From a virus (lineage: Duplodnaviria > Caudoviricetes), in IMG/VR virus record IMGVR_UViG_3300031760_004865, positions 1 through 64,000 of that record: a stretch of 64,000 bases of DNA; one strand, written 5' to 3'. Shown here piece by piece: positions 7,758 through 16,052 of the stretch. The translations under genes and the position numbers were made by a program. Under the pieces are notes generated by a model. That model ran no database searches. It was not told where the DNA came from and was given only the letters and a program-made list of their open reading frames with translations. Positions within the stretch are counted from its first letter, which is position 1; the number at the start of each line of letters is the position of its first letter.

Positions 7758-8617
7758 CTGGGGTAGATGGAATCGGACCATCCCGGCGGGAGTTTGCACA
7801 AACTCTCCCATGAATTAAATCTTTAGCCAATCTTCATCAGATATTTTTTTGATGTCATCTTTTTTGCGAGGAAGAGAATAACTATCACACCATTTCCTAA
7901 TAGCATTATCAGTTCTTCCATATAATTCTCCTATTTTTGTGAAAGGTAATTCTCTAATTAATTTTTTTAATTCTTCACGAGTTGGTTTATCCTCAGGATG
8001 AATAGATTTTTTATAACAATCCCAACATTTTATTGCTTGTGAAGTTATTGGTTTTCCACATTCGATGCATTTATTAACTTTTTCAAGCATTTTTTCTTTT
8101 CTTTTAGGAGACTCTATTGTAATATAATTATCTAATATAGATTCATCAATCATTCCTAGAATTTTATCTATTTCATAATCTTTGCCATATATAGCATTTA
8201 GATTATTACTTGAATAAGTATCAGGTTCTCCTAATCGAATAAATTTATTTTTATTAGTTTCAGTACATAATTCAATAGGAATTAAATATCCTTTATTTTC
8301 CCAATGAGTATAAAAGAAATCAATTTGACCTATATAATTATGAAATTCACTTTGATTCCAATTATGAGTTACTACAGTAAAAGAAATTCTATTATTAGTT
8401 TCTGGATGAGCAGTTTTACACTGAATCCTATATAATTTATCTTTTATTTCTGCAATAAAATCATAACGACTTGATGGATTTGTTGGCTGTGATAAAACTA
8501 TTCCCCTTTCGCAAAACTGCATCTGACACCAAAGTTCTGTTAACTGACCTAACTGATTTGAAATATTCATTTCGCGTTTCAGCAAAGTCCCGTGCCCTAC
8601 CACTAGGCTATACCCCA
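7758..8617 (-). tRNA. tRNA-Gln(UUG), interrupted at 36/37 by a 789 nt insert (7794-8582)
   Basis: 5' half tggggtatagcctagtggtagggcacgggactttg (8617-8583); 3' half actcccgccgggatggtccgattccatctaccccag (7793-7758); acceptor and anticodon stems pair fully. Confidence 0.9.
7815..8570 (-). CDS. PD-(D/E)XK homing endonuclease (I-Ssp6803I/PDDEXK_5-like) with Zn-ribbon and HTH, inside tRNA-Gln
   Basis: GQLTELWC...SSRYDFIAEIKDKLYRIQCKT...IDFFY motif; CIECGK...KCWDC; ATG 12 nt inside the insert. Confidence 0.8.
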   Translation of the reverse strand: MNISNQLGQLTELWCQMQFCERGIVLSQPTNPSSRYDFIAEIKDKLYRIQCKTAHPETNNRISFTVVTHNWNQSEFHNYIGQIDFFYTHWENKGYLIPIELCTETNKNKFIRLGEPDTYSSNNLNAIYGKDYEIDKILGMIDESILDNYITIESPKRKEKMLEKVNKCIECGKPITSQAIKCWDCYKKSIHPEDKPTREELKKLIRELPFTKIGELYGRTDNAIRKWCDSYSLPRKKDDIKKISDEDWLKI

Positions 8618-8624
8618 TTATAAC

Positions 8625-8739
8625 AAGACACTTTCAAAAATATTGATCTACCATTTGATCTACATTTGCTATTGGCGCAAAAGATGGGAATCGAACCCAC
8701 AACACTTATCTTGAAAGATAAAATTGCTGTTTGTGTCTT
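8625..8739 (-). ncRNA. Circularly permuted tRNA-like RNA A (T arm first, acceptor closed by loop, then D arm)
   Basis: gtgggttcgattcccat-cttttgc-GCCA-ata-gcaaatg-ta-gatcaaatggtagatc; ends aagacac/gtgtctt pair; ACAGCAA bulge. Confidence 0.7.
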
Positions 8740-8821: not shown

Positions 8822-8829
8822 AAAATACT

Positions 8830-8945
8830 AAACACTATATAACTCACCGGCCGCGCTGCCGTTGCGCCACGTCCCCATGAATGGGGACGACAAGACTCGA
8901 ACTTGTAACCTGCTGGTCCCATGAGAGTAATTGCTGTTAGTGTTT
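8830..8945 (-). ncRNA. Circularly permuted tRNA-like RNA B
   Basis: acaagttcgagtcttgt-cgtcccc-a-ttcat-ggggacg-tg-gcgcaacggcagcgc-g-gccgg; ends aaacacta/tagtgttt pair; ACAGCAA bulge. Confidence 0.75.
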
Positions 8946-8948
8946 AAA

Positions 8949-9084
8949 TCGGAGTGGCGAGATTCGAACTCGCGGCCTCGTGATCATCCAGTTGGAAGTG
9001 CTGGCCTTCCTTTACACTTTATGTATAAAATAACCGTATAACTGGCCCAAATCACGCGCTCTAGCCAAACTGAGCCACACCCCG
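8949..9084 (-). tRNA. tRNA-Pro(UGG) with a 61 nt ORF-less anticodon-loop insert (8986-9046)
   Basis: cggggtgtggctcagtttggctagagcgcgtgatttgg | insert | gatcacgaggccgcgagttcgaatctcgccactccga. Confidence 0.9.
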
Positions 9085-11949: not shown

Positions 11950-12279
11950 TTATGCTATATATTTATATCCATAATGAGTAAGCAAGTGTTCTATATTATG
12001 TCTTCCTACTGGATTCATTGAATGGATTGAGAAAGCACCAATTTCAATGCCCTTTTCTACAATAAACTTAGCGAAATCATACCCTGTCTTCTCCTGCCCT
12101 AAGTCGTGGTCAAAACTTATATATAAGTCTTCATACCGCATATCCTCATTGAAATTAGCAAGGTAAAAGATAGCATCTTGATATGTTTTTGCTACATAGT
12201 AAGTATCAACTATTTTACAAAAATTCTTAGATGGCTTTCTCTCATCATCAAGCCATAAACCATATTTGAATTGAGCCAT
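11950..12279 (-). CDS. Cyclic-phosphate-processing receiver-like (cREC) domain protein
   Basis: LWLDDER...ISFDHDLG..KTGYDFAKFI...IHSMNPVGRHNI pattern. Confidence 0.75.
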   Translation of the reverse strand: MAQFKYGLWLDDERKPSKNFCKIVDTYYVAKTYQDAIFYLANFNEDMRYEDLYISFDHDLGQEKTGYDFAKFIVEKGIEIGAFSIHSMNPVGRHNIEHLLTHYGYKYIA

Positions 12280-15324: not shown

Positions 15325-15849
15325 TGGGCCGTGATGGAGTTGCACCACCCGAGTCCGAAGACAGCAGATTTAATCTTGATCCGAGATTTGAACTCGGTAT
15401 TGATATGTTTGAAATCCTTGATTATTTTTTTGTTGGTTCAAAACGAAGTGAAATTTGTTTTTTATTTCCTGCTAAAAGTAAATCTTTCACAGGAATATTC
15501 CACATATTATATTCATTATCAACACAAAATAAATAATCAAGCTCAGGATGATTAAGAATAGAATCATAAACTTCACCTTTAGTTCCACCAGTAGAAACTA
15601 AATAAATTTCTTTATCTTTTGTTGCTGTTGCTTTACACTGGACGGTGTAAAACTTACTATCTTTCTCAATCACCAAATCATACCACTGAGTGTCATTCAT
15701 CGGGATGGATATTGTATAACCTTTAACTGTAAAATAGTTAATTGCCATACTCAGTCCTAACCTTCCCAATGTTTTACGGTTAATTTCTGTCATATCAAAT
15801 CTCCTATTCAAGCCAGTCTGCCCCGCTACTACTTACGGAATAACAACCC
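15325..15849 (-). tRNA. tRNA-Tyr(GUA), interrupted at 34/35 by a 441 nt insert (15373-15813)
   Basis: 5' half gggttgttattccgtaagtagtagcggggcagactg; 3' half taaatctgctgtcttcggactcgggtggtgcaactccatcacggccca; Tyr-type variable arm. Confidence 0.85.
15422..15793 (-). CDS. PD-(D/E)XK homing endonuclease inside tRNA-Tyr
   Basis: AGGAG SD; GRLGLSMAI...PMNDTQWYDLVIE...TVQCKAT. Confidence 0.8.
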   Translation of the reverse strand: MTEINRKTLGRLGLSMAINYFTVKGYTISIPMNDTQWYDLVIEKDSKFYTVQCKATATKDKEIYLVSTGGTKGEVYDSILNHPELDYLFCVDNEYNMWNIPVKDLLLAGNKKQISLRFEPTKK

Positions 15850-16052
15850 GTGTGGGTGGATTGGACTCTACCGTCCTAGGGCTACCACCAGTCACCCAGG
15901 CTTTTCCTCGCAAGCAAAAACCCCAAACGCAAAACCTAATCAACGCGCTTACAATTAGACTCGACCTTGGCCTTCGGTCTCCTGTTCTTTCACCATCAAG
16001 AACAGTGAAGCCGTTTGATATTGCTTGGTAGCTAATCAAGCGAATATCTAAC

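Follow-up and report, generated by a model that had tools for sequence, protein, structure and literature searches.

A tRNA-shaped insert with a nuclease gene splits a phage tRNA-Tyr gene: a possible third kind of tRNA intron in gut and rumen phages

The DNA analysed here (the window) comprises 64,000 nucleotides (nt), positions 1 to 64,000 of the IMG/VR virus record IMGVR_UViG_3300031760_004865 (Duplodnaviria; Caudoviricetes), an 82-kb record that is ~45 % complete and has a G+C content of 36 %. The genes of its tRNA cluster are all located on the minus strand. Within this cluster, a class II tRNA-Tyr(GUA) body running from 15849 down to 15325 is interrupted between G34 and U35 by an insert of 441 nt, which carries a nuclease open reading frame (ORF) and is framed by sequences reminiscent of the acceptor stem and T arm of a tRNA (Table 1). 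When the exons are joined, the anticodon loop reads CU-GUA-AA and the product is recognized by ARAGORN as tRNA-Tyr(gta), albeit only at a 90 % threshold on account of a weak D arm and the tRNA's own T loop, UGCAACU. The split gene itself was reported by neither ARAGORN nor Rfam when the window was scanned.

An uninterrupted tRNA-Tyr gene on another phage contig (L151:12852-12935, minus strand) is identical to the joined exons at 80 of 84 positions, possesses the same odd T loop and is collinear over the junction. The junction is therefore real, exact and unambiguous, at the 34/35 position and with the anticodon loop that the initial annotation had proposed, and on this alignment the insert is a presence/absence polymorphism. 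The split gene also appears to be in use: across ~40 split genes of very different sequence, the exons retain compensated, intact cloverleaves, and in two complete genomes the split gene is the sole tRNA-Tyr gene. These data bear directly on the idea that the insert is never spliced, i.e. that a selfish nuclease has disrupted tRNA-Tyr and that the halves are relics or an unligated split tRNA. The nuclease in the window is frameshifted, the joined tRNA requires a lowered ARAGORN threshold and host tRNA-Tyr is available to phages, all of which would suit such an idea; however, it does not account for the divergent yet complete cloverleaves, the intact allele with the same T loop or the genomes with no other tRNA-Tyr gene. 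Nor would dead genes be expected to keep a structured shell even where the ORF is gone, or to display RNA covariation that overrides coding (both described below), and we consider this explanation very unlikely.

Every sequence statement made initially about the insert was confirmed on the minus strand, including its GCUUGAA start and its end in a T arm, a 7-nt acceptor strand and a U. The first seven nt of the intron form the 5′ strand of an acceptor-like helix (P1), which in the window has five Watson-Crick pairs flanked by G.A and A.A. A second helix (P2) is formed by the start-codon region of the nuclease gene and the 8 nt that end two bases 5′ of the T stem. In the minimum free energy (MFE) fold of the 525-nt precursor (z -5.4 relative to shuffles), the stems of tRNA-Tyr are formed alongside P1, P2 and the T-arm hairpin of the intron. 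P2-like helices of other sequence, ending 0–2 nt before the T stem, are present in approximately one third of the relatives; in single cases they are indistinguishable from those of shuffles, the sequence being AU-rich, and we regard P2 as a probable closing helix. Shuffling the insert 200,000 times produced 407 sequences with at least 5/7 acceptor pairs and a 5/5 hairpin in register, with the T-loop sequence not yet required.

Table 1. Coordinates of the split tRNA-Tyr gene, its insert and the other interrupted tRNA genes of the window
Feature	Coordinates	Strand	Basis or remarks
tRNA-Tyr(GUA) exon 1, positions 1–34, 3′ end ...GACUG (G34)	15814..15849	minus	Collinear with the intronless allele L151
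tRNA-Tyr exon 2, U35 to A73, no encoded CCA, begins UAAAUCUGC	15325..15372	minus	Sequence reading
tRNA-mimic intron, 441 nt	15373..15813	minus	~40 homologous inserts, 425–445 nt, same site
P1 (acceptor-like helix) 5′ strand, intron nt 1–7, GCUUGAA	15807..15813	minus	Pairs with 15380-15374; in MFE fold
Shine-Dalgarno AGGAG, at the P1-P2 junction	15801..15805	minus	Sequence reading; kept in relatives
P2 5′ strand UUGAUAUG, start codon 15793-15791 inside	15791..15798	minus	Pairs with 15407-15400; MFE fold
PD-(D/E)XK homing-endonuclease ORF (PF11645), 123 aa, truncated, stop 15424-15422	15422..15793	minus	Pfam E 9e-13; fold
A7 run (A6 in relatives); +1 frameshift, UAA stop immediately after	15425..15431	minus	Comparison with L005 and L006
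P2 3′ strand CAUAUCAA	15400..15407	minus	MFE fold
T-arm mimic: stem CCGAG (15397-15393)/CUCGG (15385-15381), loop UUCAAAU (15392-15386)	15381..15397	minus	Covariation
P1 3′ strand AUCAAGA, abuts the T stem directly	15374..15380	minus	Sequence reading, family comparison
Discriminator-like 1-nt tail U, last intron nt	15373	minus	Tail/CCA comparison
Split tRNA-Thr UGU	22085-21355 (insert 22050-21392)	minus	PF11645 gene, 36/37, no T arm
Split tRNA-Arg ACG	11246-10712 (insert 11210-10748)	minus	PF11645 gene, 36/37, no T arm
Split tRNA-Gln UUG	8617-7758 (insert 8582-7794)	minus	PF11645 gene, 36/37, no T arm
tRNA-Pro(UGG) with 61-nt ORF-less insert	8949-9084	minus	Minihelix geometry, 1-nt tail, loop GCCAGCA

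This anatomy leaves little room for the insert to splice itself by means of an undescribed small ribozyme. The tRNA introns of bacteria and phages are, to our knowledge, known only as self-splicing group I introns, and the better-than-shuffled fold of the precursor would be compatible with a ribozyme. However, only ~20 nt of the intron are non-coding, the conserved RNA consists of the minihelix and the closing helix alone, and 50-nt versions of the intron (see below) are bare minihelices. Rfam returned no match to a ribozyme or group I intron, either at the gathering score or at E values up to 10, and the group I hallmarks are missing, since the last exon nucleotide is G where U would be expected and the last intron nucleotide is A or U in place of G. 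Self-splicing is thus highly improbable.

Two established intron types were likewise rejected as identities for the insert. A group I intron found no support in the Rfam search and would have no space for a P3–P9 core; moreover, G34 is the last nt of the 5′ exon, and the intron terminates with U in the window and with A in most relatives. A bulge-helix-bulge (BHB) intron does not fit the splice sites: on inspection, as in the MFE fold, they lie on either side of an uninterrupted acceptor-like stem whose overhang is 1 nt.

Relatives of the insert were sought using protein and pattern searches, which yielded 5 viral, 78 metagenome and 5 metagenome-assembled genome (MAG) loci; as ARAGORN with its intron options misplaced or missed the Tyr and Arg genes, we wrote our own scans. 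The five MAG loci are binned with Muribaculaceae, Acutalibacteraceae, Clostridium and Oscillospiraceae but lie on phage-sized contigs, and these taxa are candidate hosts at most. Split tRNA-Tyr genes of the same build, interrupted at 34/35 by inserts of 425–442 nt, were found in rumen and gut phage contigs, of which 35 distinct examples were analysed and a few more were added later. Among 25 distinct helix variants, positions 1–6 of P1 are paired in 145 of 150 cells (97 %), compared with a mean of 104 and a maximum of 121 in shuffles, and the T stem is paired in 123 of 125 cells (98 %), including C-G/U-A and G-C/A-U swaps. Several pair types occur at every position of both helices, and the mimic T loop reads UUCAANU in all 35 examples. 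By these measures, the architecture is that of a family and not a product of chance. The suspicion that a chance origin was unlikely, raised in the initial annotation, is thereby upheld by both the shuffles and the ~40 covarying relatives. Its suggestion that G1.A72 and U73 are a signature of the class fared less well: the family consensus is G1-C72, U2.G71 and A73, indicating that G1.A72 and U73 are local quirks of the window.

A scan of 2.9 Mb by geometry only, in which the T-loop sequence was not required and the spliced products were filtered by ARAGORN, recovered the tRNA-Tyr family together with further Tyr, Lys, Gln and Pro cases. These comprise tRNA-Tyr genes split at 35/36 by inserts of 445 nt (L107) and 65 nt without an ORF (L079), both with the tail UCCA; tRNA-Lys genes split at 36/37 by 586 nt with an HNH gene (L136, tail ACCA) and at 35/36 by 50 nt (L110, tail CCCA); a tRNA-Gln gene split at 35/36 by 66 nt without an ORF (L039, tail GCCA); and the tRNA-Pro gene of the window, split at 36/37 by 61 nt with the tail U. 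A further tRNA-Tyr gene split at 35/36 (L230, tail UCCA) was found separately, after the scan. The tRNA-Pro insert aside, all but one of the filtered candidates had a T-loop-like sequence, and that single candidate appears to be a false positive. In more than 40 introns, the helix begins at intron nt 1 and the tail extends to the last intron nt, at 34/35, 35/36 and 36/37 and in tRNAs for Tyr, Lys, Gln and Pro, such that the register moves exactly with the insertion point. The shell holds a PD-(D/E)XK gene, an HNH gene or, in versions of 50–66 nt, no gene at all, which argues that the intron's own protein would not be needed for splicing.

The survey initially suggested, for split tRNAs whose inserts end in a T arm, thus led to the Tyr family and to Lys and Gln cases. 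The proposal of a mobile, position-independent intron class, in which an endonuclease is housed in a tRNA-shaped shell, is supported in silico by the three insertion positions, the varied cargo and the intronless alleles. The tRNA-Pro insert of the window shares the geometry; its loop does not match the T-loop consensus, and its junction can be placed at either of two adjacent positions, 36/37 or 37/38. No relatives of the tRNA-Pro insert were found in our searches, and an intact tRNA-Pro gene is present in a related phage (G009; L114).

Two further observations concern the cargo and form of the shell. In L136 (source coordinates 7077-6492, minus strand), the gene within tRNA-Lys(UUU) encodes an HNH-type endonuclease whose UAA stop codon lies inside the T stem; the same shell here carries an unrelated cargo. 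The ORF-less introns L039:453-518 and L079:1152-1216 share a D-arm-like motif (a 4-bp stem, GUAU/AUAC) and a 3-bp stub, and resemble whole tRNAs minus the anticodon arm.

The ORF in the window insert is one of four PF11645 genes in the window and scores 48.8 bits against this family (cut-off 26.1). An AlphaFold model of the protein (predicted local distance difference test score, pLDDT, 83.8) has I-Ssp6803I as its best match in the PDB (2ost_A, TM 0.77, E value 6e-7), and a profile search also places 2OST first, albeit weakly (E value 0.1). Residues D39, E43, K44 and Q52-C53-K54 are invariant in 10 relatives and include candidates for the catalytic acidic residues and lysine. Genes of the family occur either within tRNA-Tyr genes or immediately next to them, and alleles lacking the intron were found; we propose that the protein is a predicted DNA homing endonuclease whose target would be the anticodon region of intronless tRNA-Tyr genes. 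The frameshift in the window copy costs the ORF a conserved 18-residue C-terminal tail, and the frame stops 49 nt short of the intron end, with the RNA structure remaining intact. The A7 run could indicate that the gene is decaying, that the homopolymer was misread in sequencing or that slippage occurs at this site.

In 30 of 35 relatives, the ORF continues across the T arm and then the 3′ strand of the acceptor-like helix and stops at a UAA composed of U35-A36-A37, the first three bases of exon 2. The ORF is thus not confined to the space of the D and anticodon arms, as had been supposed, and in intact copies only the unspliced precursor is a complete mRNA. The T arm of the relatives corresponds to the codons Y-R/Q-V-Q-I/F-S/L, in which R/S and Q/L exchanges occur together and thereby preserve a base pair. 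The residues downstream vary freely, as expected if the sole demand on them is pairing with the 5′ end of the intron, and a second clade has another protein tail while retaining the T arm. Free-standing relatives of the nuclease, ~25 of which directly adjoin intact tRNA-Tyr genes, have the C-terminus Y-L-V-K/E/T-I/L-stop and lack the hairpin. The loop-forming V-Q codons were detected in 2 of ~31 distinct nuclease genes first classed as non-intron, one of which (L230) was a missed 35/36 intron. On these comparisons, RNA-level selection is overriding coding at the 3′ end of the gene.

The nuclease ORFs of L005, L006, L020, L036-L040 and others contain one to six in-frame TAG codons at conserved Gln positions, and tRNA(CUA) genes are located near such ORFs; the window copy has no in-frame TAG. 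The pattern is consistent with recoding of TAG as Gln in this group of phages.

The tail of the intron follows the 3′-end style of its own tRNA without exception. Where tRNA-Tyr lacks CCA, the tail is 1 nt long (22/22 loci), and where tRNA-Tyr encodes CCA, it is ACCA (13/13 loci); the five extra introns with an NCCA tail are all in CCA-encoding tRNAs. The neighbouring tRNA genes agree, with an encoded CCA in 42 of 45 where the tail is NCCA and in 2 of 69 where it is 1 nt. A shift of the 3′ splice site by exactly three bases wherever CCA is encoded is a prediction of tRNA 3′-end processing.

From these data, the insert is probably cut out by host RNase P and an enzyme of the RNase Z type, with an RNA ligase rejoining the halves; we infer the occurrence of splicing, the cutting enzymes, the chemistry of the ends and the joining ligase from sequence. 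The intron would be an mRNA within a tRNA minihelix, with an acceptor-like stem stacked on the T-arm mimic and ending in a discriminator or NCCA, and host tRNA end-processing enzymes would handle it, within the precursor, as a tRNA. RNase P would cut 5′ of intron nt 1 to leave G34 with a 3′-OH, and the RNase Z-type enzyme would cut after the discriminator (or after CCA in CCA-encoding phages) to leave U35 with a 5′-phosphate. The halves would be kept together by the tRNA's own stems while an ATP-dependent 3′-OH/5′-P RNA ligase, for which the NgrRnl-like enzyme encoded by complete relatives is a candidate, seals the nick in the anticodon loop.

Minihelices, transfer-messenger RNA (tmRNA) and MALAT1 mascRNA are all substrates of RNase P and RNase Z. 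The phage intron displays an acceptor-like stem of seven positions that abuts a 5-bp T stem with a 7-nt loop, the T-loop consensus U54 U55 C56 R57 A58 and a tRNA-style 3′ end, as in tRNA-like substrates. No RNase Z or CCA-adding enzyme was found to be encoded in the phage records searched. With regard to CCA-encoding phages, the tRNase Z of Thermotoga maritima cleaves exactly after A76 (PMC1540738). A PF09414 ligase, which in the relatives matches the Naegleria RNA ligase, is encoded by 5/5 complete phages with such introns (one barely above the cut-off). Among complete phages whose tRNA-Tyr is intact, the ligase was found in 0/3 that have a free-standing nuclease and in 3/14 others.

A number of points weigh against excision by RNase P and RNase Z. 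The window copy is peculiar in its G1.A72, a possible G34.U73 pair and its frameshifted nuclease, and may be decaying; furthermore, no RNA ligase was found in its 82-kb record, itself only 45 % complete. The pooled hypergeometric probability for the ligase distribution (p ~0.002) comes from a small sample and ignores kinship. Similarly, the match between tail and CCA could stem partly from shared descent: on an intron tree built without the structural ends, the best topology has five tail switches and the strongly supported branches force one, leaving a sign test without power. An exact endonucleolytic cut after A76, as needed in CCA-encoding phages, is known for few bacteria. In L012 and L013, a gene for an AAA_33 polynucleotide-kinase-like protein adjoins the ligase, which in L012 is encoded at 805-2076, and a 109-aa protein encoded among the tRNAs of the window (11950-12279, minus strand) has a cyclic-phosphate-processing receiver domain, cREC_REC (PF20274, E value 2e-21). 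Such genes fit the healing and sealing of 5′-OH/2′,3′-cyclic-phosphate ends, which RNase P and RNase Z do not make. Finally, the T-arm-less inserts in tRNA-Thr, tRNA-Arg and tRNA-Gln of the same phage need another route, so that a single machinery common to all of its introns would not be RNase P/Z.

Two weak matches to YrlA (Y RNA-like) RNAs, of 36 and 29 bits, were detected at 8617-8730 and 8828-8944 (minus strand). Taken with the cREC_REC gene, they may point to a module for RNA repair within this cluster of tRNA genes.

The kinase-like gene, the cREC_REC gene with the YrlA-like RNAs nearby and the T-arm-less inserts, which are presumably spliced too, are what would be expected if another protein endonuclease of phage or host made the cuts. 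It would leave 2′,3′-cyclic-phosphate and 5′-OH ends for a kinase and phosphoesterase to heal and a phage ligase to seal, and the shell would instead stabilize the nuclease mRNA against exonucleases, recruit CCA-adding or T-loop-modifying enzymes, or hold the splice sites together. However, this alternative does not explain why, at three insertion positions, the helix starts exactly at nt 1 and the tail ends at the last nt, nor why the tail copies the 3′-end style of the phage's tRNAs. Kinase-ligase pairs are common phage tRNA-repair modules irrespective of introns, which also counts against it, and no candidate endonuclease was found. A search of 16 phage records, that of the window and 15 related ones, found no RtcB (EndA was not searched for), and on this account a route through RtcB was rejected. 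We therefore regard cleavage by another endonuclease as unlikely.

The Thr, Arg and Gln inserts themselves are built differently. In each, intron nt 1–7 are base-paired to nt -10 to -4, and the anticodon is complementary to the final 3 nt of the intron; on this geometry, 3 bp of a single long helix would separate the two splice sites, which would have 3′ overhangs. This insert type is also found in relatives (G002:89348-90200). Their geometry is unlike that of the Tyr class, and their mechanism is probably another one too. Elsewhere in the cluster, the 200-nt spacer between tRNA-Met and tRNA-Tyr (15850-16051, minus strand) has a G+C content of ~50 % compared with 36 % for the genome; it returned no match in Rfam, and its fold does not reach significance (z -1.65).

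Returning to the tRNA-shaped insert, several known systems share part of its design. The group I intron in tRNA-fMet of Synechocystis PCC 6803, which encodes I-Ssp6803I (2OST, PF11645), is likewise a mobile anticodon-loop insert with a nuclease of the same family and fold; however, it has a full self-splicing core, whereas the phage insert has no ribozyme, is nearly all ORF and conserves only a tRNA minihelix as RNA. Archaeal and eukaryotic BHB introns (EndA/Sen with RtcB or Trl1) resemble it in lacking a ribozyme and in their position in or near the anticodon loop, and the dependence on protein and a ligase is what we propose here. In contrast to BHB introns, the phage intron has its splice sites where a single acceptor-like stem begins and ends, with a 3′ overhang of 1 or 4 nt, and the predicted ends are 3′-OH/5′-P rather than cyclic phosphate/5′-OH.

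The tRNA-like domain of tmRNA, MALAT1 mascRNA and the tRNA punctuation of mitochondrial transcripts are tRNA-like elements cut by RNase P and RNase Z. As proposed for the phage intron, their processing signal consists of an acceptor stem plus T arm and does not include a normal anticodon arm, and tmRNA also combines a tRNA-like domain with an mRNA. These elements mark RNA ends, whereas the phage element lies inside another tRNA; its removal therefore needs ligation, making it an intron. Sealing of an anticodon-loop break by an ATP-dependent ligase has parallels in T4 Pnkp and Rnl1 and in the Rnl5-type ligases of Naegleria and Deinococcus, the ligase of the relatives matching NgrRnl. T4 repair, however, mends damage from a host anticodon nuclease, whereas the break in the phage intron would be a programmed expression step.

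We found no description of such tRNA-shaped introns in the literature, and protein-dependent tRNA splicing is considered an archaeal and eukaryotic trait. On balance, we lean towards a third kind of tRNA intron in gut and rumen phages, which would be disguised as a tRNA, excised by host RNase P and RNase Z and resealed in the anticodon loop by a ligase. If true, the bacterial world would have its first splicing pathway that depends on protein and not on a ribozyme. It would be a third, independent solution reached by mimicry, through which a homing endonuclease could colonize an essential RNA gene that it enters with no ribozyme of its own. Because the stop codon of the nuclease is located in exon 2 and its final codons make up the T arm, splicing of the tRNA would preclude translation of the selfish gene and vice versa. 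Split in this way, many phage tRNA genes are invisible to standard finders, as the tRNA-Tyr of the window is to both ARAGORN and Rfam, and the arrangement would be a natural counterpart resembling engineered designs in which flanking tRNAs release an RNA.

The free-standing relatives beside tRNA-Tyr genes, and the locus L079, can be likened to T4 SegB, which is encoded among tRNA genes, and to F-CphI with the ORF-less psbA intron of cyanophage S-PM2, although the window nuclease sits inside its intron and this intron is not of group I. In L079, a free-standing nuclease gene (701-1102) is positioned directly upstream of a tRNA-Tyr gene with a 65-nt ORF-less intron (1152-1216), a layout that resembles collaborative homing, with the intron shielding the target of the nearby nuclease. 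L106 and L108 each encode an intact tRNA-Tyr followed by a free-standing nuclease and then an orphan tRNA 3′ half consisting of a T arm and acceptor strand, which looks like the scar of a gene replacement.

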